Shown: piece by piece, positions 36,962 through 58,724 of the stretch | Numbering within the stretch: position 1 is the first letter of the stretch | Layout of the letters: the number at the start of each line of letters is the position of its first letter | IMG/VR virus record: IMGVR_UViG_3300038678_000044 | Strand: one strand, 5' to 3' | DNA from: an uncultured virus (IMG/VR IMGVR_UViG_3300038678_000044) | Lineage: Duplodnaviria; Heunggongvirae; Uroviricota; Caudoviricetes | DNA length: 64,000 bases | The notes under the pieces: generated by a model | What the model saw: the letters and a program-made list of their open reading frames with translations, nothing else | The model's database searches: none | Told to the model about the DNA's origin: nothing | Position numbers and translations under genes: made by a program

Positions 36962-37102
36962 TTAGTAGCGCAGAAATTTGAAGGGTTTGCCGTTTTTGTA
37001 GATCGTGACGCTACGGCCCAGATCAACGCTTAACTGCTTGGCAACACCCAGGATGACCCAGAAATCTGGGTATTGGTCTCCCTCACCATCGATCGTGAAC
37101 AT
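36962..37102 (-). CDS. Small hypothetical protein (46 aa)
   Basis: MFTIDGEGDQYPDFW..., read by hand; ends just before the terminator. Confidence 0.45.
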   Translation of the reverse strand: MFTIDGEGDQYPDFWVILGVAKQLSVDLGRSVTIYKNGKPFKFLRY

Positions 37103-37253
37103 CGTCTTCTTCCTCTGTATCCCTTACGAGGCCAAGGTTCTGGCGTATGTCAGCGATGGTGGCTTTGAAGCCGCCGCGCTTTATAACAACATACGCGGAG
37201 GCGGCGAGGTCGAGCGTGACGTAAATCACAGCGATTGCACAAAAGATTTCCAT
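37083..37253 (-). CDS. Small membrane protein (56 aa)
   Basis: MEIFCAIAVIYVTLDLAASAYVVIKR; AAGGAG RBS and its own promoter. Confidence 0.55.
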   Translation of the reverse strand: MEIFCAIAVIYVTLDLAASAYVVIKRGGFKATIADIRQNLGLVRDTEEEDDVHDRW

Positions 37254-37272
37254 GTCTTACTCCTTGACTGAA

Positions 37273-37315
37273 TGTACCCAGGTGAGACAATAGAGCATTG
37301 ACTACAGGATTGCAA
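37273..37315 (-). promoter_or_regulatory. sigma70-type promoter
   Basis: TTGCAA-17 bp-TATTGT, followed by CCTGGGTACA. Confidence 0.7.
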
Positions 37316-37635
37316 GGACCAGGGTCATTAAAGTAATTAGAGGAATTGTGATTGCAGACAGGATGTCATTCAGAGTGGCAACTGAGGAGTTCAGGAAGCG
37401 TGACTTCGGAATGACCAGGCTGGACACAGCCAGGAAGCTCCTCGATGAATATCTACATCTAAAAGTGGAGGGCATGGCGACCATGCAAGTGATCCCATTG
37501 GGTGATGTGTGCGAGGTCCGATTGCGTTCGGAATGAGACAGGTGAAAGTGTACCGACCATGCAGGTATCATAAGAGCCATCCGACACATCCTCGGTGGGC
37601 CGATTGCGGCTGCCGGGAGACAATGGAGTATGTGC

Positions 37636-38319
37636 GTGAGCGCCCCAGCGGAAGCAATCGAAGTAATCCCAGGCAACACCAGAGGCTGGCCACGAACTAA
37701 ACTGCAACTGGACTTTGCTCTGAACGTAGTTCAAGAGGCAATGAATCCACATGCGGCAATGATCGCTGCTGGCTACGCCAAGAACAGCTCGAAGGTTAGA
37801 TCTCACGAGCTGGCTGCCAATCTTCGACCGTTCATGGCATTTCTCCAGGAGAAAAAGAATGAGGTGGCGGCGATCCACTACGATGCGACGACGACCAGGA
37901 TCCTGCATGAGATGTCAGCGATCGGTCTTCAGAACATCAAGGATTACATCCGAGTCGTGAAGGTGGATAAAGTGCTGCATCTTATCGGTAGGCCGGTAAA
38001 CGAGCTGACTGATTCCCAGGCTTTGGCTGTTGCATCCTGGGAGAGCCATCTGATCCAGACGGATGATGGCCCTGATTTCGATTTCAAATATGTGCTGCAT
38101 GACAAGGCCAGTGCCCTGGTAAACCTGGGTCGGCACCTGGGCATGTTCTCAGAGAAGCTGATGCTGGATCTCAATATGCGTCAGAGCCAGGCGAGATCCC
38201 TGGACTTCAGCGCCTTGCCGCAAGACGAATTGGAGCTTGTCATCAAGACCCTGGAAGGTATTCAGCAGAAAGCCTCGAAGGCCAGAGCAATCGAAGGGGA
38301 ATCGCACCGAGTCGATTGA
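37636..38319 (+). CDS. terS: Terminase small subunit
   Basis: AMIAAGY, ILHEMSAIG and LHDKASALVNLGRHLGMF. GTG start 7 nt after GGAG. Confidence 0.85.
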   Translation: MSAPAEAIEVIPGNTRGWPRTKLQLDFALNVVQEAMNPHAAMIAAGYAKNSSKVRSHELAANLRPFMAFLQEKKNEVAAIHYDATTTRILHEMSAIGLQNIKDYIRVVKVDKVLHLIGRPVNELTDSQALAVASWESHLIQTDDGPDFDFKYVLHDKASALVNLGRHLGMFSEKLMLDLNMRQSQARSLDFSALPQDELELVIKTLEGIQQKASKARAIEGESHRVD

Positions 38320-38376
38320 GATTTCTGCCTTTTTATCGTAGTCTTTCGCTGAGGGTATAGTCATCAAGGAGCAGCC

Positions 38377-38739
38377 GTGAACAGGATGTCACAATGGTTA
38401 GCGATAGCATTTTCAACCTGGTACACCTGGTTGATCTACGTGTCGAATACACCTGCCGGAACTGAGGCGCAGGCTGATCTGGTTCCCTGGATCACCTGGG
38501 GCTTGTTTGCTATCTCGCTTAATTCTATTCGCATGGACGATGAGTTCCTGGTGCATCTTCCGGCCAAGACTCATTGGATCAAGGCTGGTGCAGACATCAA
38601 TATCGTTGCCCAGGTTTTCCTGTTGGTGGTGACAGGCCATTGGATCCTGGCTCTCGTTCGAGGATTCTCTGAAACATTGATTCGATTTCAAGTTGATAAG
38701 GCAAGTGGATGGCTGGGCGTAGGGCTTCCGCGAAGGTAA
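38377..38739 (+). CDS. Membrane protein
   Basis: Three hydrophobic segments. Confidence 0.55.
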   Translation: MNRMSQWLAIAFSTWYTWLIYVSNTPAGTEAQADLVPWITWGLFAISLNSIRMDDEFLVHLPAKTHWIKAGADINIVAQVFLLVVTGHWILALVRGFSETLIRFQVDKASGWLGVGLPRR

Positions 38740-38943
38740 AGTATGAGCGGTGGTTGGCCTGGCGCAAGAAGACAGTCGAGGAGAATTTTCGCGATGTTTG
38801 TACGTGCTACATTGGCAAGCCGTTCGTCTATGGCTCATGCAAAAACTGTGAAATGTGTCCTGGGTGCAAGCAGCGAATTAAAGTCACATACTGGCCAGCT
38901 CACGAGAAATCGTGCCTGGCGTTGAAAGACCTGGAGGGGAAAC

Positions 38944-39246
38944 ATGCCACTCAAAATTGACTGCGGTGACGTAGAGCTTACGCTGAATCTCGTGTTCGGC
39001 GTGAGATACAAGCTGGCCGCGAAGGATGAAGACGAGCAAGCTGAGCGAGCCGCCATGATCGACAAAGCGATGGACATCAAGTCTAACCTGGAGAAGTCAG
39101 TGCTGATTCAGCTTGCTGATCACATTGGTTACGACGAGGAGACGATCGAAGCGAAGATCAATGCCAGGGACGAGAAGAATGCTGGCGAGCAAGCAGCAGA
39201 GAAGCAGGGTAGCGAAGACATGAGGCGTCGTCGGACTGGTCGATGA
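38944..39246 (+). CDS. Hypothetical protein
   Basis: RBS present; coupled. Confidence 0.55.
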   Translation: MPLKIDCGDVELTLNLVFGVRYKLAAKDEDEQAERAAMIDKAMDIKSNLEKSVLIQLADHIGYDEETIEAKINARDEKNAGEQAAEKQGSEDMRRRRTGR

Positions 39247-39611
39247 ACGACAAGAAGGATCGAAGCAACCGAATTATTTTGCCTAACCAGGATGGCGTTG
39301 CCAGCCTGGATATTCGGCGCGTAAAAAAAGAACTCGCAGGGAAGTCAAAGCCTTCTGAGATGAGCGGTTACATGCCTGATGATGTGATTCCAGAAATTGT
39401 GAAGCAACTGAAAGAGATCATCAGCGACGTACAGAAGGGTGAAGTCTCGACCATTTCCGTACTTACCATCATGCCGCAAGTCTATGGCATGGACACTGGT
39501 AAGGCTTTGATGTCAGGGCCTAACAATGAGATGGATAAACTCCATGAGCTGTTTCACATTACATGGAATGAACGATTAGAGGGGGTGCCACCTGATGACG
39601 AAGCTGGCTAA
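39243..39611 (+). CDS. Hypothetical protein
   Basis: Coupled ORF. Confidence 0.55.
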   Translation: MNDKKDRSNRIILPNQDGVASLDIRRVKKELAGKSKPSEMSGYMPDDVIPEIVKQLKEIISDVQKGEVSTISVLTIMPQVYGMDTGKALMSGPNNEMDKLHELFHITWNERLEGVPPDDEAG

Positions 39612-39900
39612 GGTTTTGCTGGCAACAGATCTCCTGGAAGCGATTATGACTGCCAGGAATAATGACTTTGTGAATACCGATTGTCCGAAAGACTTGAAGG
39701 TCGTGAAGGTATTGCAAGGCTTTGATGACCAGGCCAATCATCAAGTGGTCCTGGTTGTGCAAAGCGACGAAGCAGACTGGCCTGACATCAAGTTTAATGG
39801 GCCCGAGGTCGATATACCTTTCGTTGGGCCTTTCCAGTACACTGTCGTCGATCCCGATGAGGATGAGTCGCCGCCAGTGACTGAGGAGATAGCGCCATGA
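39595..39900 (+). CDS. Hypothetical protein
   Basis: Coupled ORF. Confidence 0.55.
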   Translation: MTKLAKVLLATDLLEAIMTARNNDFVNTDCPKDLKVVKVLQGFDDQANHQVVLVVQSDEADWPDIKFNGPEVDIPFVGPFQYTVVDPDEDESPPVTEEIAP

Positions 39901-40091
39901 GTGACGACAGGGGCAAGGGCTTCCAAACGCCAGCGGTTGAGAATCCTCCCTACGAGCCATGCACAGATTTCGAGCCACCGGAGAAAGATCCGGACAGGCT
40001 GCGGAGTAAACTGCCCAGGAAAACCGGGGCACATCCGGCACCGTCGCAAAAGGTTCGCAACTTTCCATCGCAAACGTGAAGCCGGGAGTTA

Positions 40092-40514
40092 ATGATGGCG
40101 AGCAGACAGAACAAAGAAGCAAGGGAGGTTTTATCGTATGGCGCACCATTGGGTCCGCCGACTCCCAGTCCAGATCGTGAAGCGCAACGCAAAAAGAAAT
40201 TGGAGACCAAGCCAACCGATGTAGAGCGGACAAAGCGCATTGCAGAACAAGAAGAAGGTGGCATCGAGGAATCAGCGAGGCGTCGTCGAGAACGACAAAA
40301 TCGTCGCACTGAAGATCCAAAGCCATCTCCATATACGCGAGTCGGTGAAACGACAGGCAAGTCTCCAACTCAGATCTTAGCTGAGCGTCCAGAAGACGTA
40401 GGCAGGGCGATCGATATAGCTGAAGGTGTTGAACCGGCAGAGGAGCCAGTGGTGGTGGCAACCCCAGCAGTGAAGCGTCGTCCACTGAGAGAACGAGACC
40501 AACCAAGACAGTAA
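40092..40514 (+). CDS. Charged low-complexity protein
   Basis: GGGAG RBS; Arg/Glu/Pro-rich. Confidence 0.5.
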   Translation: MMASRQNKEAREVLSYGAPLGPPTPSPDREAQRKKKLETKPTDVERTKRIAEQEEGGIEESARRRRERQNRRTEDPKPSPYTRVGETTGKSPTQILAERPEDVGRAIDIAEGVEPAEEPVVVATPAVKRRPLRERDQPRQ

Positions 40515-40517
40515 GAT

Positions 40518-41219
40518 ATGAAGCTCACCAGGAGAGCGTTTTTTGAGGGATTGGCATGCGCCATGGCCACAGTCGCCATCGCTACGCGCCTGGCTCCCAA
40601 GTTCCTGCCAGATACCCTTCGAGGTGGCACCTGGAGGTACGAACAGGCCACCGAAAAATACTTCTACGGCATCGATACTGCCAAGCCCTGGGATGTTCAA
40701 CTGTTTGAACAAACTGATTTCCATGATCCTGAATCGTGGAAGCTGATGGATCCCAGTGAGCTGATGCAGCGAGCATTCGGTGAGCTGGTCGAGACCGAGA
40801 AACAAATTCAGGTTGGTCCGCGCATTGGTCCGCGCATTGGTCCGCGCATTGGTCCGCGCCTATCTCAGATGAAGAACACAGAGCGGTTATTCGTATGCGC
40901 CGAAGACGAGCGATGGCCCTGGAATAATACCAAGGAGGTCTCGCACCAGACCATTGTTGAAGTCGGCGTCGTTGAAGATAACGATGAAGCGATGCAGGCT
41001 TGCTCAGTTATTGCGATGAGCCAGGGTTTCGCTGCACTTCAAGTCGAAGGTGGCCCTCACATCATCAATGGCGATTATGGCTTTGGGATAAAAGATGCCA
41101 GGCTCGATGATCGTGTACGTACCTACGATCCGATCTTTGAGACTGAGGAGATGGACGTGGACGTTTTTGCTGTGCCGATGATTCACTCGACCAAGGAGGA
41201 ATTGTTCCGGCATGGTTGA
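40518..41219 (+). CDS. Tat-leader protein with weak capsid-like segments
   Basis: LTRRAFF plus h-region. GTWRYEQATEKYFYG resembles capsid GNLRYKARERYSFG. Confidence 0.6.
   Translation: MKLTRRAFFEGLACAMATVAIATRLAPKFLPDTLRGGTWRYEQATEKYFYGIDTAKPWDVQLFEQTDFHDPESWKLMDPSELMQRAFGELVETEKQIQVGPRIGPRIGPRIGPRLSQMKNTERLFVCAEDERWPWNNTKEVSHQTIVEVGVVEDNDEAMQACSVIAMSQGFAALQVEGGPHIINGDYGFGIKDARLDDRVRTYDPIFETEEMDVDVFAVPMIHSTKEELFRHG
40813..40859 (+). repeat. 12-bp tandem repeat, ~4 copies (GPRI)
   Basis: TTGGTCCGCGCA repeated. Confidence 0.95.
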
Positions 41220-41384
41220 ACAGAGGTGGGAGCGTAACGGACGACGCATCCTCGATCTGGAAACTGGAGACGCTGAGGTTTACGACACATTCAATGGGGC
41301 CAAACGGACAAGCCGTGCCCTTCAGATGAAGAACACGAAGGCCCTTGGGCGCGGCGACATGAAATTGAAACGAAGGAGATGGAT

Positions 41385-41975
41385 ATGAAACGATTTATAC
41401 CACTGATTTTGCTAGTATTATCAGCCACTAGCGGGGCTGCTATCGTCAACCTGGAATGGACGAACGCAACGCAAAATGTTGATGGGACACCGATCGTGGC
41501 AGCAGGTCCAGGATCTTTAGCGACGACGAAAATTAACTGGGGCGCTTGCAATCCTGATGACACACCAGCGGAACCGTTGCTCGAAAAATTTGTGCCGACG
41601 ACAGTGCCAGGTGCGAGTGAAACGACAGACATCACGATCTGGACACCTGGTCGATGGTGCTTTCTTGGTTACCATATAAACGTAGGTGATCCTGCCAACA
41701 GCATTGATCCGCAAACATCTGACGCATCGAATCCAGTATTCAAGATGATCATCATGGTGCCGCAGCCACCAGATAACCTGGTGACAGTTGCGATGGTGGC
41801 TTACCAGGTGATCGCTCAGAATAATAAATTTGTGCTACTGCCAGTCGGTGAAGTGCCAGGCGGAACAGCATGCACGGAGACCGAGATGGTCAAGGATCAT
41901 TTCGTTGTGCCGAGAGAAGCGGTTAGCTGGTACGGCGATGTTGAGCCATTAGCAGTCGTAGCGAAATGTGGCTGA
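41385..41975 (+). CDS. Secreted fibronectin-III/Ig-like protein
   Basis: MKRFIPLILLVLSATSGA signal peptide; LEWT..NVDG, PGRWCF and PQPPDNL motifs. Confidence 0.6.
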   Translation: MKRFIPLILLVLSATSGAAIVNLEWTNATQNVDGTPIVAAGPGSLATTKINWGACNPDDTPAEPLLEKFVPTTVPGASETTDITIWTPGRWCFLGYHINVGDPANSIDPQTSDASNPVFKMIIMVPQPPDNLVTVAMVAYQVIAQNNKFVLLPVGEVPGGTACTETEMVKDHFVVPREAVSWYGDVEPLAVVAKCG

Positions 41976-42081
41976 AGTGCATCAAGAAATGGTGGAATCG
42001 CTGGAGAAAAAAGCCACCTGATACCAGGCAGAATCCGAAACCAGCGACTGGCCTGACTGTGGAATTAACGAGGAGCGAACA

Positions 42082-42393
42082 ATGACAATGAGCGCAACGC
42101 TGGGATGGATACTTCCCACAGAGCGAGAAAGCAATAATCCTTTGCCAGAGACTGCGATTAAAGAAAGTATCATATCGCTCAAGGTCACTGGCGCTCCGGA
42201 TTTTACCGAGATGGATCGAGTTCCGTCACCAGGTAATTCGCATCTGCTTCCAGACCTGGCGGATGGGACTTACGCCTGGCAAGTGGAAATTGTCGATCAA
42301 GCAGGGAGGAAGTCCGGACCAGCGGAGCAGACCTTTGTAATCGATGATAGTCCACCGAAACCAGCGACAGGGTTGACCGTCGATCTAAGTTGA
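42082..42393 (+). CDS. Fibronectin-III/Ig-like single-domain protein
   Basis: TLGWILPT..LADGTYAWQV..D.AG..S..PKPATGL. Confidence 0.6.
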   Translation: MTMSATLGWILPTERESNNPLPETAIKESIISLKVTGAPDFTEMDRVPSPGNSHLLPDLADGTYAWQVEIVDQAGRKSGPAEQTFVIDDSPPKPATGLTVDLS

Positions 42394-42620
42394 TGAACAG
42401 ACGGAGGTTTATCAGAGCTTTTGCTGGCGCGGTTGCGACGGTAGCGATCGGCATGCGGATGGCCAGCCCGATGCCGCGCCTGGATTTTAATGAGGAAAAC
42501 GTCGAAGCTATTGCGATCAAGTACAAGGCGACCATGCGAGTCTCTGGCTGGAACAACTATGACTGGCGAGCGGTGTACGGAACGCCGAGTGGGCTGGATG
42601 GTGTCTATGAACAGGCGTGA
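42393..42620 (+). CDS. Tat-leader protein carrying the capsid C-terminal fragment
   Basis: MNRRRFI plus h-region. YKATMRVS..DWRAVYGTPSG resembles capsid YKARERYS..DWRGAYGSPGG. Confidence 0.75.
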   Translation: MNRRRFIRAFAGAVATVAIGMRMASPMPRLDFNEENVEAIAIKYKATMRVSGWNNYDWRAVYGTPSGLDGVYEQA

Positions 42621-42930
42621 TTTCATAGTCAGTGCGCTGGGTGCTGCAACGATGGCAGCCCTGCCTGCGAAGAAAGAAGCAACACTGCTTCACGATGCAG
42701 CGCATCACGAACTCAGCGGTGGATTCGGTCTTGCTACAGTCAAACAGGAAGGCGCGTCCATTGCTTACGATCAGGTGGGTCAGCGGTATGCAAGGGCTCT
42801 TGCCGTGTCGATGAGGCAGACCAGGGAGATTGTCGCCAGGAATGTTTTGGGGAGAGCGTTCGATGACGAAGACGAGACAGAAGACGGATACACGTACCGT
42901 ACATTCAAAGTCAGAAAGATCATCATCTGA
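42607..42930 (+). CDS. Tat-leader protein carrying capsid N-proximal fragments
   Basis: MNRRDFI plus h-region. GFGLATVKQEGASIAYDQ and YARALAVSMRQTRE match capsid aa 52-69 and 102-131. Confidence 0.8.
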   Translation: MNRRDFIVSALGAATMAALPAKKEATLLHDAAHHELSGGFGLATVKQEGASIAYDQVGQRYARALAVSMRQTREIVARNVLGRAFDDEDETEDGYTYRTFKVRKIII

Positions 42931-43129
42931 TGAAATTGAATCCCTTCGAGAGTGTAGTATTTGTGGAGGCCCATTCGATCTCGAAAGGGAAGGTGGGAGC
43001 GAGGGCAATATAGGAATCTTGCCGGTGGCTTTTTGCCCCACTTGCAGGGTAGGGATCCTGGAGTACGCTGAATTTCAGCAGCCAGGATTCGACTGTCCGC
43101 ACTGCGGGGAGTACATCGGAGAGGAGTAG
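42830..43129 (+). CDS. Small zinc-ribbon protein
   Basis: Three CxxC motifs. Start uncertain. Confidence 0.5.
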   Translation: MSPGMFWGERSMTKTRQKTDTRTVHSKSERSSSDEIESLRECSICGGPFDLEREGGSEGNIGILPVAFCPTCRVGILEYAEFQQPGFDCPHCGEYIGEE

Positions 43130-43134
43130 GAGGC

Positions 43135-43329
43135 ATGAAGACCTTCGTTAAAGAAGTGGAGAAGATGGCTGAGCATGAGCTTCGCCGTGAGTTGATAGCC
43201 ACCAGACGAATCATCGATGACATCTATTTGCTGACCAAAGATAGTGAAGCCGGTAGAGCGGAGAGCGCGGAAGGGAAGCAGAACATCATTCATCAGATCG
43301 CGCACTACTGCCACAGGCATATGCCATGA
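43135..43329 (+). CDS. Hypothetical protein
   Basis: GGAGG RBS. Confidence 0.5.
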   Translation: MKTFVKEVEKMAEHELRRELIATRRIIDDIYLLTKDSEAGRAESAEGKQNIIHQIAHYCHRHMP

Positions 43330-43335
43330 AGCACT

Positions 43336-43623
43336 ATGAGTAGGCCAGAGATCGGCAAGATCGTCGAGCTTTCCACACCGTCAGACATCGCTGAGGTGTC
43401 GATCGAAGAAGCCTGTGAGCTTGTCCAGGCTGAAGGCACCGTACCCAGGATCCTCGCGTACAACATCGATGACTACACCAGGTACGGCACTCAGATCGAT
43501 CACCTGGGCTTCAAGTATGGCATCACACCAATGCTGGATTCGTCTTATCAGGATGGCGAGTGGGCTATCCACAATCTGAAGGAAGGCGATGAGCGTGTCA
43601 CCTGCTGGAATCCAGCACCATGA
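43336..43623 (+). CDS. Protein with a capsid-like internal segment, no Tat leader
   Basis: LSTPSDIAEVSIEEA resembles capsid aa 159-173 LATAADLAEASLEQA. Confidence 0.6.
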   Translation: MSRPEIGKIVELSTPSDIAEVSIEEACELVQAEGTVPRILAYNIDDYTRYGTQIDHLGFKYGITPMLDSSYQDGEWAIHNLKEGDERVTCWNPAP

Positions 43624-44060
43624 AGCTGCCATACAGCAGCGCCACGAGTGGCACCAAAGCCCTGGCTGACATCCAGAGGATTCTGCGGCATTTTGGCTGC
43701 AACAAATTCGGCTCGATGGTTGACGATGGGAATGGAGAGCTGATCATTCAGTTTGAGTGGCAGGGACGCATGGTCACCATCAAGTGTTCCTTTCGTGGAT
43801 ATGCTGCTGCCTGGTTGGACGAAAATCCCTGGTCGTCTCGTAGGCTATCAACTGAAATCGAATGGGAGCGCAAGGCCATGGAGATAGGATCGGTCGCGAT
43901 CTATTCAGTAGCCAGAGACTGGATCAAGGGCCAGGTCACAGCAATCGAGACCGGCATCCTGACATTCGATGGCGCATTCCTGGGACAGATCATGCTGCCC
44001 AGTGGGAAGACAGTTTTGGAACACATCCAGAGTGACAAATTATTGGAGGCACCTAAATGA
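43620..44060 (+). CDS. Conserved phage hypothetical protein
   Basis: DWIKGQVTAIETGILTF..AFLGQIMLPSGKTV. Confidence 0.65.
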   Translation: MKLPYSSATSGTKALADIQRILRHFGCNKFGSMVDDGNGELIIQFEWQGRMVTIKCSFRGYAAAWLDENPWSSRRLSTEIEWERKAMEIGSVAIYSVARDWIKGQVTAIETGILTFDGAFLGQIMLPSGKTVLEHIQSDKLLEAPK

Positions 44061-44431
44061 AGAAGCATTTCGTCACGTTCTACAGCCCAGGGACGATGCT
44101 CGCTGAGCAGACCAGGAAGGAGATTAAATCCTGGAACATCGACCTTGCTCTTGAAATGATGAAGGAGATAAAGGAACGGCACGGTGCGACCCCGTTTGGC
44201 TTCCGTTTCTTCACCATGAGACGAGGCTTGCTTGCCTGGGAACCGAAGGAGATCGATGCCAGTGTCATGCACTACGTCAACTGCAAGGTGCAGACATTGG
44301 AGGAGATATGCGCGCATGGCCCAGACATCCTCTGCCAGAATATGAAGACGAACGGCTGGGATAAAGTCGTGACTACTACGCAAGGATGGGAGTGGTCGCA
44401 GCCACTCAGAGAAGGAGATATTGTCCTGTGA
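44057..44431 (+). CDS. Hypothetical protein
   Basis: FVTFYSPG..ERHGATPFGFRF; coupled. Confidence 0.6.
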   Translation: MKKHFVTFYSPGTMLAEQTRKEIKSWNIDLALEMMKEIKERHGATPFGFRFFTMRRGLLAWEPKEIDASVMHYVNCKVQTLEEICAHGPDILCQNMKTNGWDKVVTTTQGWEWSQPLREGDIVL

Positions 44432-44746
44432 GTAGATGGAATCACTTGATGTGCGCGTCCTGCTGGAACGAGCGTCGTGTCACAAAAGCGGTCGAGGGCA
44501 ACGCCGAGTCAGAGTCGTGCTGTTGGTGCGGTAGCGATACGACTTCTGGGATCTGGGTACGCAATGATCCTGAAAAGCTGTCGTGTCATCACTGCGAGTT
44601 CGAGCGGGATGATAAGTACGAGCGGTGTGATGATCTGGCCCCAGTAAAGATTCAGGAAGTCTGGGTCTGTACTCGACACATCCAGTGGGCCATGGATCTG
44701 GCGTTCAAGCCAGTGAAGGATGCAATGAAGATATAGGAGTAAGACC

Positions 44747-44974
44747 ATGAGAAGATTGAAAAGATGTAGCCTGTGCCCCCGCACAGAGAAAACTCATAAG
44801 ATCTCAAACGAGGGAGTTTGTGCGACCTGTGATGTAGCTTTGATCTACTGGAATAAGAAGACCACGACCCAGAAGATGAGGCGAGCCAGGGCCCTCGATA
44901 GCTTCCAGGCCAGAATGTCGATCAGTCTTGGTAGCATGCGAACCATCCAGGTCAAGAAGCGACGACGCGCATGA
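44747..44974 (+). CDS. Small Cys-rich basic protein
   Basis: Two CxxC motifs; RBS. Confidence 0.5.
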   Translation: MRRLKRCSLCPRTEKTHKISNEGVCATCDVALIYWNKKTTTQKMRRARALDSFQARMSISLGSMRTIQVKKRRRA

Positions 44975-46667
44975 GGAGATCCTGATGTTTGCTAAAGAGA
45001 TACCGGACTTCATTGTAGACGTGATGGAGCATATTGAGATCGGCATTGATCGAGTGGCGGACAAGAAGCTCACCATAGTCGAGCCGCCTGCCGGTGTGGA
45101 TCCACCGATGGTGAAGGTCAAATACCCTGAGCATGTGGAGCTGCTGCTGAACGTCGATGCCAAGATCGAGGATGGCACTGACGATGGTGCATGGGAGAGC
45201 CAGAGTCTCTGGGTCAAGATTCCCTGGCCAACGAGAGTGGCGTGACGGTAGATCTGAAGAAGCGCCACGAGGAGCTGCACCAGGCCCTCGATGAGCTGCT
45301 GGCCTGTTATTTCGTGGAGACCAAGCGACTGATTTCAAATACAACGCTGATGGATTTCCTGAAGTGGTCGCACCTGATGACTGAGAAGCCAACTTGTGAA
45401 GCGCATGGAGGTGAGGATTCGGGAGTCGCGCCCCGGAGTACCGATGGCTAGTTTCCTGGAGTGGCTACGATCGATGTTCTGTTGTCCGCACGATTGGAAG
45501 ACAGTATTTCGCGGGACAGTCACACGAGGAGTTCGATGCACCATCTGTGGAGAGGCAGAGCTGCGGAACGAATGGAACGATGGATCTGAACCGCTTGGCT
45601 GGAGAGAGTGAGACCAGGGCTGATGGAGTGCTGTCGTTGTCATCAAAAATGGTACGACCGGCCAGGGATGTATCGAGAGCGTGATCAGTGCCCCAGGTGC
45701 CTGAGCGTGTACTGGATCTGGGTGACCTGGAAGGGAAGGAAGTGAATCCATTACCACCGCTGATGTACCAGGGCTTGACAGTCTTTTTGACTGACGGTGG
45801 ATCATTGCGTCCGACACGAGTTCACAGCAGGAATGCCAACCAGGGCAAGCACAGCTACCACCATCGCATACAGAAGAAATGGCTCAAACGCTTTGGCCAG
45901 CACTGGGTCGAGATCCAGGCGAGAGGGCAGGTTTTCCAGCTAGGCAGGCACTCGATCATCGTGCGACGTGATGACTGGGATGCGTTTCAACGTGGGTGAG
46001 CTAGAACAGGAGTGGGACTCTGGTCCATTTTGCAGACACTGGTCTGATCCTGGCATGTGCGAGGAGATGTGCGTTAATTGCGGTCATGGTTGTGCCCAGC
46101 ACTCTTACGGAGATGGCGAAACAGACTGTCTCGAAGGCGACTGTGACTGTAAGGAATGGGTCGAATCAAGTTAGAAGGATGTTAGAACATTATGGCTGAG
46201 AAGGTTGATCGTATGCTGACAGCAAACCAGAAGACCATCCTGGCGCTGTCGGAGCTGAAGCCATCGACGACCTACAACCTTGAGTTTCGAGACAGCCTCG
46301 TAGCTCAATTCAATCGAAGGGGCGAGCTGACGCCGAAACAGTGGCACAGCGCCCGACAACTGGTGAGAGATGATGGCTGAGAATCCTGATCGAGAATGTG
46401 CGGTGCATGGCAAGTTCGCGCCTAGCCAGGGAGACCTGAGATTCGTCAATCGATTGGACGACAAGCTGGGACTGCTACGCATCCTGCAACGCTGGGAGTG
46501 GTCCTACACTGAGGCGAAGTTCGAGTGGTACGATGTGCAATGGGTGAAGGATGAAATTGAAGAAGAAGCTGGTTGAAGCCCTGGAGATCATTTGCTTCCT
46601 GGGTGCTGTTGGCCTGCTATTCTATGTGGGATACTTCCTGACCAGCGGATAGCTGGAGGAGCGAACG

Positions 46668-46937
46668 ATGAGTACGATTTACTACTGCGATGCACCTGGC
46701 TGCGTAAAGAAAGCAGCAGGCAGGCCAACACCTGATGGATGGACTGGTCCGGAGGATTGGATGTTTCATAATGGTCCGGAGAAAGTCCTTGATGCGTGTA
46801 GCGAGGAGCATCTGGACGAGGCTCTTACGGTCGCCTATCCTCCGGATCCGGAAGCCGAAGAAGCTGAATCCGAGGAGCAGGACATCACCGAAGATGACGT
46901 AGGCACTATCCCGGTAATCGACGACACCGAATCGTAA
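46668..46937 (+). CDS. Small Cys-containing protein with acidic tail
   Basis: [20 protein letters not shown]. Confidence 0.5.
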
Positions 46938-46966
46938 ACTTCCTTCGCCGCCTGGAGGATGCAAGC

Positions 46967-47182
46967 ATGCCACTCAAAAAGGGTAGCAGTAACAAGGCTG
47001 TAAGCTCGAATATCAGTGAGCTGGTGCAAACGGGCAGACCGCAGAAACAGGCTGTCGCAATCGCGATGAGCAAGGCAGGCAGGTCCAAGCACAAGCCAGG
47101 CAATCCCCATGGCAAGAAGCCAGGAAACCCTCATATGTCGAAGGAGCGCCCAGCGCATCATCGCAACAAGCACAATATGTGA
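46967..47182 (+). CDS. Small basic phage protein
   Basis: [24 protein letters not shown], common near packaging genes. Confidence 0.65.
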
Positions 47183-47559
47183 TGAGCGGCGAGGCCCGAA
47201 AGATTGCCAACGATGCCAGGGTGAAGCTCATGCTTCGCCGCATCATCGCTGGAGGGAATCCGAAAGTCATACATCGGCTTATGCGTCCGCATATGCGTCC
47301 GCATACCTGGGTGTTCCTACGACAGCAAGGCATCGCTGATGATCCAGTCACTTGCCTGGGTATCGTGTTCCACGAATGGCCCAGGAACAAATACAACATG
47401 GTGAGGTTCACCAGCCACACCCATACCGGCGAAGAACTCAAGACATCAGGGCGGCTCGCCCCGCTCGACAATGGTCAGACTGGCCTGATTCTCCAGGTGC
47501 GCTGGCCCTGGGGAGCAATGCTGAAGCAGTACAAGGGCCTCAGCGACGGAAATCTATGA
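47179..47559 (+). CDS. Hypothetical protein
   Basis: Coupled ORF before terL; contains a 12-bp duplication (MRPHMRPH). Confidence 0.5.
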
Positions 47560-47560
47560 G

Positions 47561-49153
47561 GTGGTCGCAGACCCTTTATCAGTCCAGGAAGCAGTAGCCG
47601 AGTACAAAACTCAAGCCCAAGCTGAGTTCTATCGGAGAGATCTGAGAGAATTTGTAGCGGCTGCTTGGTCGATCGTTGAACCTAAACCGTTCAAGACCAA
47701 CTGGCACTTAGACGCCATCTGCGACCACCTCGCCTATGTCACGTTCGGTGACATTCGCAATCTCATGATCAACATCCCGCCCAGGCAGACCAAGAGCCTG
47801 ACTGCGAGTGTGCTGTGGCCGGTATGGGAGTGGCTGCTGGATCCTGGGGTGCAATTCTTGTTTGCTTCCTATGCTCAGGAACTTGCTATCCGAGATGCAG
47901 TAAAGTCTCGTCGGCTGATCGAGTCAGCCTGGTTCAAGCAGCGGTATTCAGGTGCCTTCTACCTGGATCCAGCGGACAACAGGAAGAATCGCTACGTCAA
48001 CAACCATGGTGGTCATCGCATCTCCGGCTCGATCCTGGGTAAGGCGACAGGTGAAGGTGGCGACAAGATCTGCATCGACGACCCGCACAACATGAAAGAC
48101 GTGTACTCGGACACGATCCGGTACAACACCCTTTCGACCTGGGACAATAGCCTGAGATCACGCCTTAACGACCCAACCACAGGCCAGAAGGTGCTGATCG
48201 GCCAGCGGTCGCACGACGCTGATCTGTTCGGTCACATCCTGGCCAGCGAAGACGAGCGATGGGAAGTGCTGATGCTGCCGATGGAGTTCGATCCAGCCAG
48301 GAAGTGCATCACGTTCTTCAACAAGGGCAGGGGCCATCAGACCAAGAAGGGCCCGTTGTTCGAGGATCCCAGGGAGAAGAAAGGCGAGCTGCTGAATCCG
48401 CAACGCTTTGGTGAGGAGGAGAGGAAGGCCGAGACCAAGGCAATGTCCGTGAGGGACTACAGCGCCCAGTTCAACCAGGATCCGACATCCGGTGGTGGCC
48501 TGATCCTGAAGAAGAAGTGGTGGCAGCAGTGGTGCTTCCCAGAGGATCATCCGGAAGCTGGCAAGCCGATGCCACACCCAGAGTTTATCGAGGTCATCTC
48601 GTTCTATGACACGGCATTCGAGGAGGATGAGGAGAACGACTGCTCTGCCAGGATCACTGCTGGGCTGTTCGAGTATTCACCGTCAGGCCGGGAGATCGAT
48701 ACCGAGGTTCATGCGTTGCTGCTGGAGCGGTTCAACGATCGAGTGGAGTTCCCTGATCTCAAGACCGAGGCGATAGCCCACAATGTTCAGTGGAGCCCTG
48801 ACCGAACGCTGATCGAGAGGAAGGCCAGCGGTCACTCACTGATCCAGGAGCTGCGTCGAGCTGGCGTTTCTATCTGGGGAGTGAATCCAGGCACCAAGGA
48901 CAAAGTATTCAGAGCGCACATGGTTGCCCAGGTGCTGAAGGAAGGTCGGCTGTGGTACATCCCCAGGAACTGGGCCTACGAGGTGATCAATCAGTGCGCG
49001 ACCTTCCCGGTCGGTGAGAATGATGACTTGGTGGATTGCATCGTGATGTTGCTTGGATACATCCGTCGCCTGGGCCTGATGGAACTCGACGACGACGAGA
49101 AGATGGACGAGATGAAACTGTTCAGCCAACCGAGGAAGTTCTATGGAGCGTAG
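47561..49153 (+). CDS. terL: Terminase large subunit
   Basis: NIPPRQTKS Walker A, GEGGD..IDDPH, YDTAF, IERKASG and FPVGENDDLVD. Confidence 0.95.
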   Translation: MVADPLSVQEAVAEYKTQAQAEFYRRDLREFVAAAWSIVEPKPFKTNWHLDAICDHLAYVTFGDIRNLMINIPPRQTKSLTASVLWPVWEWLLDPGVQFLFASYAQELAIRDAVKSRRLIESAWFKQRYSGAFYLDPADNRKNRYVNNHGGHRISGSILGKATGEGGDKICIDDPHNMKDVYSDTIRYNTLSTWDNSLRSRLNDPTTGQKVLIGQRSHDADLFGHILASEDERWEVLMLPMEFDPARKCITFFNKGRGHQTKKGPLFEDPREKKGELLNPQRFGEEERKAETKAMSVRDYSAQFNQDPTSGGGLILKKKWWQQWCFPEDHPEAGKPMPHPEFIEVISFYDTAFEEDEENDCSARITAGLFEYSPSGREIDTEVHALLLERFNDRVEFPDLKTEAIAHNVQWSPDRTLIERKASGHSLIQELRRAGVSIWGVNPGTKDKVFRAHMVAQVLKEGRLWYIPRNWAYEVINQCATFPVGENDDLVDCIVMLLGYIRRLGLMELDDDEKMDEMKLFSQPRKFYGA

Positions 49154-51721: not shown

Positions 51722-54223
51722 ATGGCAGCCAGAGCGGATCTTTTATCGACCATGAAGCCGATGCCGACCTTCACGGAGACTGAGCAGGTCACCGCGAAGA
51801 ACATCATCACGCATAACGAAGATGGCACGATCTCGATTGTTCCGAAGGGTGAGATCGCTGAGTACGCTGACGTTGATCACGATGAGGAGACACCGGAGGG
51901 TTGGAACGACAACCTGGCAGAGGAGCTGTCTCCCCAGGAACGAATCGCAATCGCGGACGAGCTGATCGAATACTACGAGATCGATGAGCAGGTTCGCGAG
52001 GAGCATTTCGAGCGGCTGACCGATGGGCTCAGGCTGATGGGCTTGACCGACGAGCCAGCCTCAGATGTACCGTTCAAGGGTGCGGCCACCGTGCAGCATC
52101 CACTCATCGCTGAAGCTGTGACGCAGTTCCAGGCACGAGCGATTGAGGAATTCTTCCCGCCCCAGGGCCCGGTCAAGGCTTACATCATGGGTGAGGCGAC
52201 CGACGAAAAGGTGGCGCAGGGGAAACGTCTCGAAGACTACATGAACTATCAGCTCACTGAAGCCGACGAGGAATACTTCTGGTCCACGGATCAGATGCTG
52301 TTTTATCTCCCCCTTTCAGGATCTGCATTCAAGAAGGTCTACATCGATCCCATTACCGGCATGACTACGAGCAGATTTGTTACTGCTGAGGATTTCATCG
52401 TTCCGTATCATGCGCGAACTTTGGCGAACGCACCTCGGTACTGTCACAAATATGAGATGCCGGAGAATGATGTATTCAGGGCCCAGGAGGCGGGATCTTT
52501 CATTGCAGATGCCAGGCTGTTGCCGACACCGCAGATCCTGGTAGACAAGAACACCAGCTTCTCCAGGTACGACCTGGAGGACGTGGCCGACGATCGCAGT
52601 CCTCAGCAGCATTACGACGACACGATCTACACGATGCTGGAGTACCACATCGATTACCACATGCCCTGGGACGAAGACTCAGACATAGCGCCTCCGTATG
52701 TCGTCACGGTCGAGGCCGAGTCTCGCGAGGTCATGGCAGTCAGGCGGAACTGGAAGCACGACGATCCGCTGATGAAGAAGCGAATCTGGTTCACGCATTA
52801 CAAGTATCTCCCTGGCCTTGGTTTCTATGGCTTTGGCCTGCTACACATAATTGGCTCACTAGCGAAAGCTGTCAGTGGCGGCATCCGTGCCCTACTCGAC
52901 AGTGCAGCAGTGGCAAACCTTCAAGGTGGCTTCAAGAGCAAAGAAGCCAAGATTGCTGGGGAGATACGTTTTACACCGGGCGAGTGGATCGATGTCGATA
53001 TGTCCGCCGACGAGCTGGAGAAGGCATTCTTCAACCTGCCGGTCAAGGAGCCATCGACTGCACTCGCTAACCTGGTACAGACGCTCGTCGATGAGGGCAG
53101 GCGATTCGCCACCACCACTGAGAACATGGTTGGTGATGCCAAGAACACTGGACCAGTGGGCACGACCCTGGCGCTGATCGAGCAGGGCTCGAAGGTATTC
53201 AGCGGCATCCACAAGCGCATGCACGTCTCTGCCAGGCAAGAGTTCAAGATGATGTCCCAGTTGAACTACGAGTTCATGGACGTGGAGGAGTATCCCTACG
53301 AGGTCCAGGGTGAGGAACGCACGATCCTGAAGTCGGACTTCGATGGTCGCGTAGACATCATCCCGGTCTCGGATCCGAACATCTGGTCAGCGACTCAACG
53401 CATTGCACAGAACCAGGCAGTGCTGGAGTTGATCACCGCAGATCCGGAGCTGTATCCGAAGAAGCAGCGCAAGATCGCGCATCGACGAATGTTCGAGGCC
53501 ATGCGGATACCGGACATCGATCAGATCCTGCCGGAAGACACGGATGCACCACTGGATCCGGTGAGCGAGAACATGGGCTTCCTGGTCGGATCGGCTGCGA
53601 CCGTGTATCCACTCCAGGATCACGAGGCGCATATCGCGGTCCACATGAATTTTGCAGAGCAGCAAGCAGCGGAGAATCCTGACCTGGTAGCCAACCTGGA
53701 GCCAGTGATCCAGGCGCATGTGATGGAACACAAAGCCTACGTTTATCGGCAACAGGTCGAGGCCGAACTGGGTACGCAGTTGCCATACATCAACCTGGAT
53801 GATCCGAGTGACAACGAAGACTTGCCACCGGAGCTGGAGAAGCTGATCAGCCAGGCTGTTGCTAAGAAGCTCAAGCCTCCGCCTCCGCCTGCACCGACAC
53901 CTGAAGAACAGGCGGAGCAGGATCAGCGTCAGCGCGAGGAAGATGAAGCCGACCTGGAAGTCATCGGCAAGATCGAGCGCGGTAGAGCAGAGAGCGCAGC
54001 CGGGATTGATCGCAAGGACGAGGAGTCCGAAGCAGAGCAGGAGCGCAAGGACAAAGAATCAACCGCTGAGGGCAAGCGCAAAGACACAGAATCGAGAGCC
54101 GAAGTTCGTCGCCAGGACAAGTTAGCTCGCGCCAAGGCCACGTTTGGAAAGGGGCCTGTAAGCGTACCAAGGGGAAAGACCAGCAAGAAACGGAAGACGA
54201 AACGTGGCAGTAGCAAGTCCTAA
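51722..54223 (+). CDS. Portal protein (P22-like)
   Basis: HPLIAEAVTQFQA, LPLSGSAFKKVY, PGLGFYGFGL, PVGTTLAL and DIIPVSDPN. Confidence 0.9.
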   Translation: MAARADLLSTMKPMPTFTETEQVTAKNIITHNEDGTISIVPKGEIAEYADVDHDEETPEGWNDNLAEELSPQERIAIADELIEYYEIDEQVREEHFERLTDGLRLMGLTDEPASDVPFKGAATVQHPLIAEAVTQFQARAIEEFFPPQGPVKAYIMGEATDEKVAQGKRLEDYMNYQLTEADEEYFWSTDQMLFYLPLSGSAFKKVYIDPITGMTTSRFVTAEDFIVPYHARTLANAPRYCHKYEMPENDVFRAQEAGSFIADARLLPTPQILVDKNTSFSRYDLEDVADDRSPQQHYDDTIYTMLEYHIDYHMPWDEDSDIAPPYVVTVEAESREVMAVRRNWKHDDPLMKKRIWFTHYKYLPGLGFYGFGLLHIIGSLAKAVSGGIRALLDSAAVANLQGGFKSKEAKIAGEIRFTPGEWIDVDMSADELEKAFFNLPVKEPSTALANLVQTLVDEGRRFATTTENMVGDAKNTGPVGTTLALIEQGSKVFSGIHKRMHVSARQEFKMMSQLNYEFMDVEEYPYEVQGEERTILKSDFDGRVDIIPVSDPNIWSATQRIAQNQAVLELITADPELYPKKQRKIAHRRMFEAMRIPDIDQILPEDTDAPLDPVSENMGFLVGSAATVYPLQDHEAHIAVHMNFAEQQAAENPDLVANLEPVIQAHVMEHKAYVYRQQVEAELGTQLPYINLDDPSDNEDLPPELEKLISQAVAKKLKPPPPPAPTPEEQAEQDQRQREEDEADLEVIGKIERGRAESAAGIDRKDEESEAEQERKDKESTAEGKRKDTESRAEVRRQDKLARAKATFGKGPVSVPRGKTSKKRKTKRGSSKS

Positions 54224-54840: not shown

Positions 54841-55044
54841 ATGTCTGCACTTCGGATAGCAGAACTCATCCTCGTTCGAGCCAGGGAGCGCCTGGAGGAA
54901 AATCATGCCCAGATGGATAAGGGCGGAAGCCACGACCAGTACATGAAGCTCGTCGGTAAGAATAGCGAGCTTCGCTGGATCCAGGACATCACCAGGGAGT
55001 TCCTTGCGAAAGTCGAGGGAGAGGAAGAATTGGATGAACTCTGA
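54841..55044 (+). CDS. Hypothetical head-module protein
   Basis: G..DQYMKLVG motif; GGAGG RBS. Confidence 0.6.
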   Translation: MSALRIAELILVRARERLEENHAQMDKGGSHDQYMKLVGKNSELRWIQDITREFLAKVEGEEELDEL

Positions 55045-55450
55045 AGCGGAAGTACCAGAGCAGCAAGAAGCGACATTATTGGACACGTTTGAACCGAAGG
55101 AATATCCAGGGCAGATGGATCTGTGGCGCTTAGTAGTGCAGATTGCTGAGCCACCTGAGTTAAGTGCAGGTGGAATTGTGATCCCGGATGAATACAAGGA
55201 TGACCAAGAGTTCGCGAGTTACGTGGGCCAGGTTCGATCGATGGGCCCGTTGTGTTACACGGCAATCACCAGGTCGCAGATGGATCTCAAGGACGCGCAC
55301 GGATGCAAGATTGGTGACTGGGTAGAATTTGGAGCGCACGATGGCGAGCGTCGTCGGACGCAGGATGGCACCCTCTGGGTGATTCTTTCTGATACGCAGA
55401 TCATGGGCGTGACGAAACATCCTGAGCTGTACGATTGCATGTCCCTTTGA
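55034..55450 (+). CDS. groES: GroES-like co-chaperonin
   Basis: SAGGIVIP, GQVRSMGP, KIGDWV.F and ILSDTQIMGV. Confidence 0.8.
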   Translation: MNSEAEVPEQQEATLLDTFEPKEYPGQMDLWRLVVQIAEPPELSAGGIVIPDEYKDDQEFASYVGQVRSMGPLCYTAITRSQMDLKDAHGCKIGDWVEFGAHDGERRRTQDGTLWVILSDTQIMGVTKHPELYDCMSL

Positions 55451-55511
55451 CAGGAGAAGCGCACGGAGTATTATCAGCGACACTAAGTCGTTGCGGACTA
55501 GGAGAGCGAGG

Positions 55512-56576
55512 ATGGCTAACACGCAACGGGACAAGATCGAGTACGAATTTGAGGATCTGCGAAGGAACACGGATTCGATACCAGATAACGTACTTAATCA
55601 GCTTGGACTCGAAGACGAGGATTTGACTGAGACTGAGCGTCAAGAAGACACAAAAGCCAAGGATGACGATAACGACGAGGAGTTGGAGGAGGCAGGAGGC
55701 CAAGACGACGACGACGAGCTGGGTGAAGATGGAGAATACAGTCCAGCGAAGATGACCAAGGCGATGCGTAAGCGCCTGGTCGGAATCAAGCGCGATGCGA
55801 GCCGACAGATAGCAGCCGCCAAAACAGAAGCTGGCGAGGAAATATCAAAGCTAACTAAGCGGATCAACGAGCTTGAGAAGTCAGGGAAGACTGATGAACT
55901 CGACAACGAGTTCAGCGGCAAGATCGACGCTCTGGAAGCGAAGATTGAAGCTGCGATGGAAAAAGGCGACAGCAAAGAAGTCGCCTCACTCACCCGACAG
56001 ATGGGTGAGCTGACTGCGGATGTACGTGATCGGAAACGGGAGCTGGAAGCCCAACACGACGAACCTGACGACCTGGACGAGACAGAGGAGCCCAAGGTCA
56101 TCCCCAGAGCCATGGAATGGATCGAGGAGCAGGTGTGGTGGGACGACGAAGATCTCGGACACGTTCGAGCATTCGTTCGTAAGGCGGACCTCGCCTTGCA
56201 GAAGAAAGGTTATTTACCCACCGAGGATGATTTCTACGAGCAGCTTGAGGAGCTGGTCGAGAATAAGTATCCAGGCGTCGTTGTGCATACAGCGGACGAG
56301 GAGGAGGAAGAAGATCTCGATCTTGACCTCGATGAGGAGGAGGAAGACGACTTCGGCTCGATTCCCTCGAAAGGCCGGAAGGCGAAGAAGAAGCGAGCCA
56401 GGCGAAGGGGCCCGGTCTCTGAAGGCGATCGTGGTGGCATTGCCAAAACGAAGAAGCGTCGTCAGAAGAAAAAGGGTAAGACATTGAGCCGTGCCAGGGT
56501 TGCGAACATGAGAGCGTTCGGCCTGGATCCGGAAGATCCGGCAGCGGTTGAAAACTACCTGGAGGGCTGTGACTAA
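55512..56576 (+). CDS. Putative scaffolding protein
   Basis: Acidic coiled coil with a basic C-terminus, upstream of the capsid genes. Confidence 0.65.
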   Translation: MANTQRDKIEYEFEDLRRNTDSIPDNVLNQLGLEDEDLTETERQEDTKAKDDDNDEELEEAGGQDDDDELGEDGEYSPAKMTKAMRKRLVGIKRDASRQIAAAKTEAGEEISKLTKRINELEKSGKTDELDNEFSGKIDALEAKIEAAMEKGDSKEVASLTRQMGELTADVRDRKRELEAQHDEPDDLDETEEPKVIPRAMEWIEEQVWWDDEDLGHVRAFVRKADLALQKKGYLPTEDDFYEQLEELVENKYPGVVVHTADEEEEEDLDLDLDEEEEDDFGSIPSKGRKAKKKRARRRGPVSEGDRGGIAKTKKRRQKKKGKTLSRARVANMRAFGLDPEDPAAVENYLEGCD

Positions 56577-57812: not shown

Positions 57813-58724
57813 ATGGCTATGAATCGAAGCGACTTTCGCAAACAGTTGCAGGAAGGCTTGAACGCAGTCTTCGGAATGGAGTACAAGCGGTATCCAGAGG
57901 AGTGGCGCGACATCTTCGACATCGAGCGATCGATGAAAGCATTCGAGGAAGACGTGTTGCTCGCAGGATTCGCTGGTGCGCCAGTTAAACCTGAAGGCGA
58001 AGGCGTGGCATACGACCAGGGCGCAGAGAGTTACGTTGCCCGATACACGCATGAGACGATTGCGTTGGCATTTGCAATCACCGAGGAAGCTGAAGAAGAT
58101 GGCTTGTACGGAAGTCTTGGCAACAAGTATGCGAGAGCCCTTGCACGATCTCTCCAGCACACCAAGGAAGTCAAAGGTGCTGACATCATCAATAACGGTT
58201 TCGACGCAGGTTTCCTTGGCGGCGACGGAGTTCCGTTGTTTTCACTGCTCCATCCGCAATTCGGTGGCGGTAACCAGGCTAATACCCTGGCCACGGCAGC
58301 CGATCTCGCGGAAGCGTCTCTTGAGCAGGCGGCGATCGACATCTCAGAGTTCGACGACGACCGTGGCATCCCGATTGCAGCGCAGATCACAAAGCTGATT
58401 GTTCCGACAGAACTTCAGTTCGTGGCTACGCGGATCCTGATGTCACCGTATCGCACGAACACTGGCGATAACGACATCTCTGCCATCTACACTCTCGGCA
58501 CAGTCGGTGACGGTTTCTGCGTAAACCACCGCTTGACTGATCCAGATCAGTGGACACTCAAGACAGACTGCCCTGATGGCCTAAAACACATGCTGCGTAA
58601 GAAGGTTTCTCGTGGAATCGAAGGCGACTTCGAGACCGGCAACCTTCGTTACAAAGCTCGCGAACGGTACAGCTTCGGCTGGTCCGATTGGCGTGGTGCA
58701 TACGGCTCGCCAGGTGGCGCGTAA
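57813..58724 (+). CDS. Major capsid protein (HK97 fold, Mu gpT-like family)
   Basis: GLNAVFG, EG..VAYD, AFAITEEA.ED, DGVPLFS..HP and YKARERYSFGWSDWRG. Confidence 0.9.
   Translation: MAMNRSDFRKQLQEGLNAVFGMEYKRYPEEWRDIFDIERSMKAFEEDVLLAGFAGAPVKPEGEGVAYDQGAESYVARYTHETIALAFAITEEAEEDGLYGSLGNKYARALARSLQHTKEVKGADIINNGFDAGFLGGDGVPLFSLLHPQFGGGNQANTLATAADLAEASLEQAAIDISEFDDDRGIPIAAQITKLIVPTELQFVATRILMSPYRTNTGDNDISAIYTLGTVGDGFCVNHRLTDPDQWTLKTDCPDGLKHMLRKKVSRGIEGDFETGNLRYKARERYSFGWSDWRGAYGSPGGA

Follow-up and report, generated by a model that had tools for sequence, protein, structure and literature searches.

The window analyzed here, the whole 64,000-nt stretch of an uncultured virus (IMG/VR record IMGVR_UViG_3300038678_000044), was identified by Pfam and PHROGs as the greater part of the genome of a tailed phage, which comes from marine sediment. 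A cluster lying between terS and terL contains four small genes, here named A to D, two of which (B and C) join a twin-arginine translocation (Tat)-type leader to segments homologous to this phage's own major capsid protein (MCP). The genes concerned, all on the + strand, and their recognizable parts are the following.

37630..49153, +: terS-to-terL interval, a variable region housing the gene cluster A-D (terS 37630-38319, terL 47561-49153, both from Pfam/PHROGs)
40518..41219, +: gene A, 233 aa, Tat-like leader of B's type, body not capsid-like
42393..42620, +: gene B, 75 aa, Tat-type leader and a copy of the MCP C-terminal strands
42393-42470, +: leader of B (aa 1-26)
42489-42593, +: MCP C-terminal-strand copy of B (aa 33-67)
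42607..42930, +: gene C, 107 aa, Tat-type leader with E-loop-like and spine-helix-like MCP segments
42607-42672, +: leader of C (aa 1-22)
42715-42789, +: E-loop-like segment of C (aa 37-61)
42766-42891, +: spine-helix-like segment of C (aa 54-95)
43336..43623, +: gene D, 95 aa, without leader, aa 11-45 (nt 43366-43470) possibly derived from MCP 158-206
57813-58724, +: MCP, 303 aa, Mu-gpT-like (PF10124, phrog_371)

The gap between terS and terL is about 9.2 kb and holds about 25 small genes, all on the same strand; the location of the cluster between the two genes, as given in a sequence-only reading of this DNA, was thus borne out.

The MCP was modeled by AlphaFold2 (AF2) with a mean predicted local distance difference test score (pLDDT) of 83.2 and a predicted template-modeling score of 0.80, and Foldseek returned the HK97, D3, T5, and gene transfer agent capsids and encapsulins as the best structural matches of the model. 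The 303-aa protein is thus predicted to be a complete HK97 fold, while solved structures searched by the MCP sequence gave nothing significant. In the model, helices could be assigned to the N-arm (residues 5-19), the spine (99-127), and the A domain (167-178); the extended E-loop covers ~52-70 plus strands 71-89, and a P-domain hairpin is found at the C-terminus. The full HK97 fold, that is, N-arm, E-loop, P domain with spine helix and A domain in ~280-400 aa, was found in neither B nor C.

Gene C had been read as matching MCP aa 52-69 and 102-131, and all comparisons recovered these segments. BLASTP aligned C with MCP 49-131 across one 32-aa gap (E=1e-8), a hidden Markov model (HMM) of 22 full-length MCPs matched it in two pieces, MCP 50-74 and 99-140 (E=3e-18), and hhalign of the C family against a family of 30 MCPs gave prob 99.3 and E=2e-20, the 58 aligned columns being 45% identical. 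The homologues of C, 23 clusters of 93-119 aa with 43-100% identity, retain the leader and both MCP-like motifs nearly invariant. In detail, the nearly invariant residues A43, K46, E48, G49, D55, L65, S68, T72, E74, and F85 of C align with A56, K59, E61, G62, D68, L110, S113, T117, E119, and F130 of the MCP, which are invariant or nearly so in that family. The AF2 model of C showed no compact fold, only the leader helix and the spine-helix segment (mean pLDDT 50.3), which would be weakly consistent with a linear-motif role given the low confidence of the model. An ESM Atlas search with C returned no usable match.

Gene B starts at 42393 with an ATG that shares the sequence TGATG with the upstream stop codon, and it overlaps C by 14 nt; the ORFs (open reading frames) of the cluster had been described as intact, with two overlapping each other, and so they are. 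Of the two MCP matches proposed for B, that to aa 279-302 was confirmed, as BLASTP aligned B with the last ~30 residues of the MCP (270-302, E=9e-7), the MCP-HMM matched it at MCP 269-300 (E=7e-4), and the family comparison by hhalign gave prob 97 and E=1e-10, while the match to aa 164-175 was not recovered. Homologues of B fell into 13 clusters of 66-88 aa, in which leader residues 9-20 are invariant and many proteins end where the MCP ends. The possibility that B and C are a single frameshifted gene was ruled out, as C carries its own leader and occurs without B in the related loci L003, L005, and L017, among others.

For D, the proposed match to MCP 159-173 was partly sustained. The family comparison by hhalign placed D 11-45 on MCP 158-206 with prob 89.6 and E=1.9e-6, and BLASTP aligned 16 aa (E=0.002), while the MCP-HMM match was not significant (E=0.17); D, conserved in L003, L005/L006, L008, L017, and L019, may therefore be a leaderless capsid-derived relative, with moderate profile support. 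The proposed matches of A to MCP 276-289 and 241-249 did not hold: the best BLASTP hit had E 0.91, the MCP-HMM gave no match, and hhalign gave prob 0.25. Nor did the A family profile match any of the 26 larger window proteins, and when the 25 small cluster ORFs were compared by BLASTP with these 26 proteins, the MCP was the sole match. Chance similarity to the MCP was therefore rejected for B and C on their E-values and accepted for A, which, by its sequence, is a leader-bearing neighbor with a different body of no recognized kind, in a conserved family of 32 clusters. As a side observation, A carries a perfect 12-nt tandem repeat of 3.75 copies (nt 40815-40859) encoding GPRI x4, which was missing from all six A homologues aligned. 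Instead of the four capsid fragments, three of them with leaders, that had been proposed, the cluster thus holds two genes with both leader and capsid sequence (B and C), one with a leader only (A), and one possible leaderless fragment (D); sequence comparison identifies the MCP family as the source of the segments in B and C, and perhaps in D.

The three twin-arginine leaders noticed earlier (A, TRRAFF; B, NRRRFI; C, NRRDFI) are each followed by an uncharged Ala/Gly/Val-rich stretch. By the rule of RRxF[FLIVM] at most 9 codons from the start codon and then at least 12 uncharged residues, exactly three N-termini of the 64-kb window were matched, namely those of A, B, and C, all inside 2.4 kb, compared with a chance expectation of 0.18 on average and 2 at maximum in 100 order-2 Markov randomisations. 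Both the twin-arginine motif and a hydrophobic region (h-region) of at least 12 uncharged residues were present in the three proteins, and the shared stretch ATVAI..R.A, also reported earlier, occurs in the leaders of A and B. The A leader matched neither PF10518 (Pfam TAT_signal) nor TIGR01409. A lipobox Cys, as in a lipoprotein signal, is lacking in the B and C leaders, and the Cys of A is not conserved in L017 or L019. An origin of the leader from the MCP N-arm was also considered, since MNRSDF of the MCP resembles MNRRDF of C and two family members (P0013 and P0018) are collinear with MCP 3-131; however, the leader has no independent significance, with the local C-MCP hhalign alignment starting at column 40, and such an origin stays speculation. 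Canonical Tat-type ORFs without capsid content were observed in relatives as well (L017 7422-7763, L019 6670-7026, and L007 10232-11164), those of L017 and L019 also within the terS-terL interval.

To establish how widely such genes occur, the C-family profile was compared with 1.84 billion representative proteins, and 248 matches (clusters at 50% identity) were obtained at E<=1e-3, so that the family is large for this capsid type alone. Among the 148 newly listed matches, 104 are no longer than 160 aa, and in 88 of these RRx[FLIVMAG][FLIVMA] occurs no more than 25 aa from the start. The other 16, read by eye, comprise 10 apparent cut N-terminal parts of ordinary MCPs, 3 proteins with a truncated leader, 2 with the leader further in, and one 42-aa piece. 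The larger matches are mostly MCPs of 302-308 aa, hit at residues ~50-76 and ~96-140 with E of 1e-8 to 1e-5, so that the homology is established on the scale of the database. The family's leader logo reads M-[NKD]-R-R-x-F-[IL]-[KQR]-G, with F in 85/90, I/L in 85/90, and K/Q/R in 74/90 sequences and no KR, RK, or KK variant of the RR in this set, and its h-region has a median of 16 residues and a mean Kyte-Doolittle value of 1.78. At E<=0.01, 39 of the 88 leader-bearing small proteins matched Pfam TAT_signal and 26 matched TIGR01409 (best E ~1e-6), and no other family recurred among the 88.

Conversely, the MCP-HMM matched 108 of 109 leader-bearing proteins at E<1e-3, with the subsets and the order of the segments varying. 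The mosaic types observed, given by MCP positions in their order in the small protein, are the following.

50-74, 99-140 (C type)
76-131
50-70, 2-38
270-300, 52-74, 99-135
129-149, 51-70, 102-133
144-179, 102-157
43-69, 164-179, 2-28
269-300 (B type)

The segments are the most conserved motifs of the MCP, that is, N-arm, E-loop, spine helix, A-domain helix, and C-terminal strands, and their order varies. P0026, from another contig, combines a Tat leader, an MCP E-loop segment, and a piece of the C-terminus of the scaffold-like head protein, the latter being 29 aa long and 65.5% identical to aa 332-360 of that protein (E=2e-9). These results make it very probable that B and C, as functional accessory genes, belong to a large family, not described before, of 70-135-aa proteins composed of a Tat-type leader and one to three MCP-homologous segments. 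The earlier suggestion that this may be an undescribed system agreed with a full-text literature search, in which no paper was found whose title or abstract describes phage genes combining a Tat leader with capsid fragments; and in the accessible portion of a 2026 Tat review, phages are mentioned solely in unrelated contexts.

Selection on the small genes was estimated by pairwise dN/dS (nonsynonymous to synonymous substitution rates) with our own Nei-Gojobori script on 4-6 sequences per gene, synonymous sites being near saturation in some pairs. Values of 0.17-0.38 were obtained for C, 0.25-0.36 for D, and 0.14-0.30 for A, compared with 0.03-0.12 for the MCP and 0.08-0.15 for terL. No frameshifts were found, and start and length are conserved in the 23 clusters of C and the 13 of B, indicating that the genes are under purifying selection and, as argued before from their intact frames, are not a decaying duplicate. 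Two outcomes that would have spoken against the earlier reading, a lack of significant profile similarity to MCPs and frameshifted or neutrally decaying homologues, were accordingly not seen for B and C. C then D are collinear with MCP 50-140 then 158-206, an order which makes an ancient partial duplication a plausible origin and which would suit a functionless relic of a decaying MCP duplicate; with dN/dS well below 1, 248 representative clusters, and E-values of 1e-10 (B) to 2e-20 (C) in the family comparisons, a relic of this kind, or a chance resemblance, is hardly credible.

Among 29 loci reached via terL, C-type genes were found in the terS-terL interval of L001, L002, L003, L005, L006, and L017, with two copies each in L008 and L012 and a remnant in L007, while B beyond its leader was found only in L001 and L002; many other loci of the 29 do not span the interval. 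Two or three such genes also lie upstream of terL in L068-L074 (57% terL identity) and in L066 and L067 (~28%). The relatives thus differ in copy number, and the interval in which the genes are located is itself variable. The small genes evolve fast: in phages sharing 97%-identical MCPs, the C proteins are 55-68% identical. Recent copying from, or co-evolution with, the phage's own MCP gave no signal, the scores being about equal across six MCPs, and this lack of closeness, together with the conserved context, indicates an old family keeping family-wide invariant motifs, not recent copies. The MCP itself shares 85% identity with those of L087/L088, compared with only ~57% for terL; either the packaging gene is far less conserved than the head gene, or the head gene has been exchanged independently of it.

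In several other sets the small genes were not encountered. The cultured phages nearest by MCP (38-56% identity) infect Roseobacter, Pelagibacter, cyanobacteria, Alcaligenes, and Caulobacter, and in the first 50,000 of the 53,013 bases of Roseobacter phage CRP-901 only the MCP was found, with the small genes absent. Prophage regions that encode an MCP of this family, examined in five bacterial genomes, likewise lacked the small genes; besides the MCP, only weak leader-only matches to host proteins were obtained in these genomes. A scan of genome contigs gave 15 loci, all ordinary MCPs; protein queries with C, P0042, and P0096 against 50,697 deposited phage records gave MCP genes or nothing, and a DNA search of deposited phages gave no match.

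The residues retained are exactly the invariant ones of the MCP (E-loop, spine helix, and N-arm), a fact that speaks for binding of the body to a partner reading them, either a neighboring MCP or scaffold protein or a host sensor. The first of these partners is assumed if the motifs bind the MCP itself and poison capsid assembly of a co-infecting relative, as prophage tail-assembly blockers do for tails, or, alternatively, hold procapsids or free MCP of the phage itself at the membrane Tat receptor, for example coupling assembly to lysis or packaging. P0026 would fit such a role, as its 29 aa from the scaffold-like C-terminus may, by analogy with the P22 scaffold, be a coat-binding end, and the genes are co-oriented with the head genes. 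The scaffold-like protein concerned is encoded as follows.

55491-56576, +: scaffold-like head protein, acidic, 361 aa, whose C-terminal 29 residues recur in P0026

However, the motifs are common to the phage's own MCP, so that the poison would strike its own phage too; the genes are accessory and variable, not core, and show no matching to the MCP of their own phage. Interference with, or tethering of, capsid assembly is regarded as an unlikely account. Prophage assembly blockers are similar in being accessory phage genes directed against the morphogenesis of another phage, but they are not known to be built from fragments of the target protein or equipped with an export leader. The terms prophage tail assembly blocker and inhibitor occur in the accessible portion of bioRxiv 10.1101/2025.02.27.640495.

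Additional export-type proteins in the cluster point in another direction. Besides A, two neighbors of B and C come into question.

41379-41975, +: 198-aa protein, Sec-like N-terminus (by eye only), FN3-like body
42082-42393, +: 103-aa Ig-like protein, Big_13 match below threshold

In L068-L074, the Tat-leader capsid genes adjoin homologues of the 198-aa protein and, in most of these loci, homologues of the 103-aa Ig-like protein too, so that the triad travels together in distant relatives. Capsid sequence could then be mere raw material for peptides that act in the periplasm after Tat export or anchoring, in superinfection exclusion, in sensing the ejected internal proteins of a second phage, or in lysis timing, together with the FN3-like and Ig-like neighbors. 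The Tat-leader ORFs lacking capsid content in the same interval of L017 and L019 and the Gly/Ala-rich, highly conserved leader, which resembles a membrane segment with a role of its own, are in line with such an envelope function. It fails, however, to explain selection on exactly the MCP-invariant residues across a family whose mean column identity is 14%, and capsids do not enter the periplasm; we consider it improbable, to about the same degree as an effect on assembly.

The invariance of the Tat motif and the largely unstructured body predicted by AF2 could also suggest that TatBC is occupied or jammed by the proteins, acting as export-incompetent substrates, or that they time lysis by letting proton-motive force leak. 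Such a plug needs neither conserved MCP motifs nor purifying selection on them, and small unstructured hydrophilic chains tend toward export rather than toward blocking the translocon. A hijack of the translocon in this sense appears very unlikely.

An arms-race function accords better with the accessory, variable, and mosaic character of the genes than a core assembly role does, and a Tat-targeted mimic, serving as a decoy or sink for factors that recognize conserved capsid motifs, was therefore ranked first and is tentatively favored as the best explanation. The body would be a linear mimic of invariant capsid-assembly motifs and would bind a factor recognizing them, for which a capsid-protein sensor of the host is the most plausible candidate; through the leader, this complex would reach the inner-membrane TatBC receptor, or would pass across the membrane, and the sensor or other factor would thereby be kept away from the real capsid protein. 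The premise that conserved capsid features can be read by immune proteins has precedents. Lit reads the Gol peptide of T4 gp23, a short internal peptide. CapRel is an example of capsid-triggered immunity (accessible portion of PMC9712102), and MCPs are described as directly triggering the immune sensors Avs7 and Dsr1 (accessible portion of bioRxiv 10.64898/2026.01.04.697583). In these systems, as far as the accessible texts go, the sensors read conserved MCP features, as the decoy would require, although they are host sensors, unlike the phage-encoded proteins here. A capsid-fragment decoy encoded by a phage, with or without a Tat leader, was not met with in the accessible portions of the literature on capsid-triggered immunity. 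With respect to removal of a bound partner, some Tat substrates are exported as heterodimers in which one partner bears the signal (accessible portion of PMC10924467).

Several observations weigh against a Tat-targeted decoy. A decoy in the cytoplasm needs no export leader, and the near-invariant leader is only loosely explained by tethering or export. Its hydrophobic core is more conserved than the body, as exemplified by residues 9-20 of the B family; cleaved signals are seldom conserved to this degree, a hint that the leader has a role of its own. The leaders of B and C scored just below the curated cut-offs, with 16.6 bits for B on TIGR01409 (cut-off 16.7) and 16.9 and 19.7 bits for B and C, respectively, on PF10518 (cut-off 22.7). 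Moreover, the query profile that yielded the 104 small matches included the leader, so that leader prevalence among them is partly by construction. The small proteins are no closer to the MCP of their own phage than to others (about equal scores against six MCPs of 37-98% mutual identity), and this equal likeness to all MCPs gives no support to co-evolution with a cognate partner. Finally, the genes lie on the late-operon strand without a promoter signal of their own; a promoter and terminator scan of 37000-48000 showed no excess over shuffles.

A broader form of the decoy idea would be that phages have repeatedly built Tat-leader "export-tagged epitope arrays" that capture host immune sensors or assembly proteins of rivals, the captured proteins being tethered at the membrane or expelled from the cytoplasm by the folded-protein translocase. 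This is a speculative suggestion, held with more doubt than any reading above except the relic and the translocon hijack; if true, it would represent a new anti-defense principle and a new use of Tat hitchhiking. If the proteins are mimics, they would mark those capsid motifs that matter to a binding partner, be it host immunity or a rival phage, and would be a case of phage use of the Tat folded-protein pathway, which is undescribed for phage accessory proteins in the literature found. Even without a decoy role, widespread and selected phage mini-proteins made of virion pieces behind Tat-type leaders need explaining.

Compared with known Tat signal peptides (PF10518, TIGR01409), the leaders are alike in the Z-R-R-x-F-L-K motif, the moderately hydrophobic Ala/Gly-rich core of ~16 residues, and the basic residues after it. 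They differ in that the proteins are phage-encoded, with tiny bodies made of virion pieces in place of a cofactor enzyme, and in the unusually conserved core; their export is putative. The weakly hydrophobic N-terminal segment rich in Gly/Ala/Ser/Thr also resembles the signal-arrest-release (SAR) domains of the phage endolysins and pinholins. These domains are Sec-dependent and followed by a lysozyme or holin body, whereas here RR-x-F-L-K is invariant and the body is capsid-derived. With the HK97-fold MCPs (PF10124, phrog_371), the bodies share clear homology of individual segments, but they consist of 25-60-aa pieces, often permuted, lack the A and P domains as well as any predicted compact fold, and have a leader added. 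Paralogues of MCPs are known in other forms, such as the T4 gp24 vertex protein and the capsid-size proteins of satellites.

Two further genes of the window were assigned by Pfam/PHROGs.

51722-54223: portal
55004-55450: GroES-like protein

Elsewhere in the window, RecT, SSB, DnaB, and RusA were recognized, and no tRNA was found. Related viral records linked to the loci are 68.6 and 72.8 kb long and rated 99-100% complete. A zinc-ribbon-like small ORF (42830-43129) has an annotated start that overlaps the 3′ end of C in a different frame; its real start is probably later, because in relatives only the portion downstream of the C stop codon is conserved. Between the cluster and terL, a series of small Cys-rich (CxxC-type) ORFs extends over 44386-46174, for which Pfam and PHROGs gave no family beyond weak phrog hits. 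At the other end of the window, a 3941-aa ORF (4588-16413, +) combines InPase (PF18823) and LPD38 (PF18857) domains and is thus a "polyvalent protein," a kind found on mobile elements.

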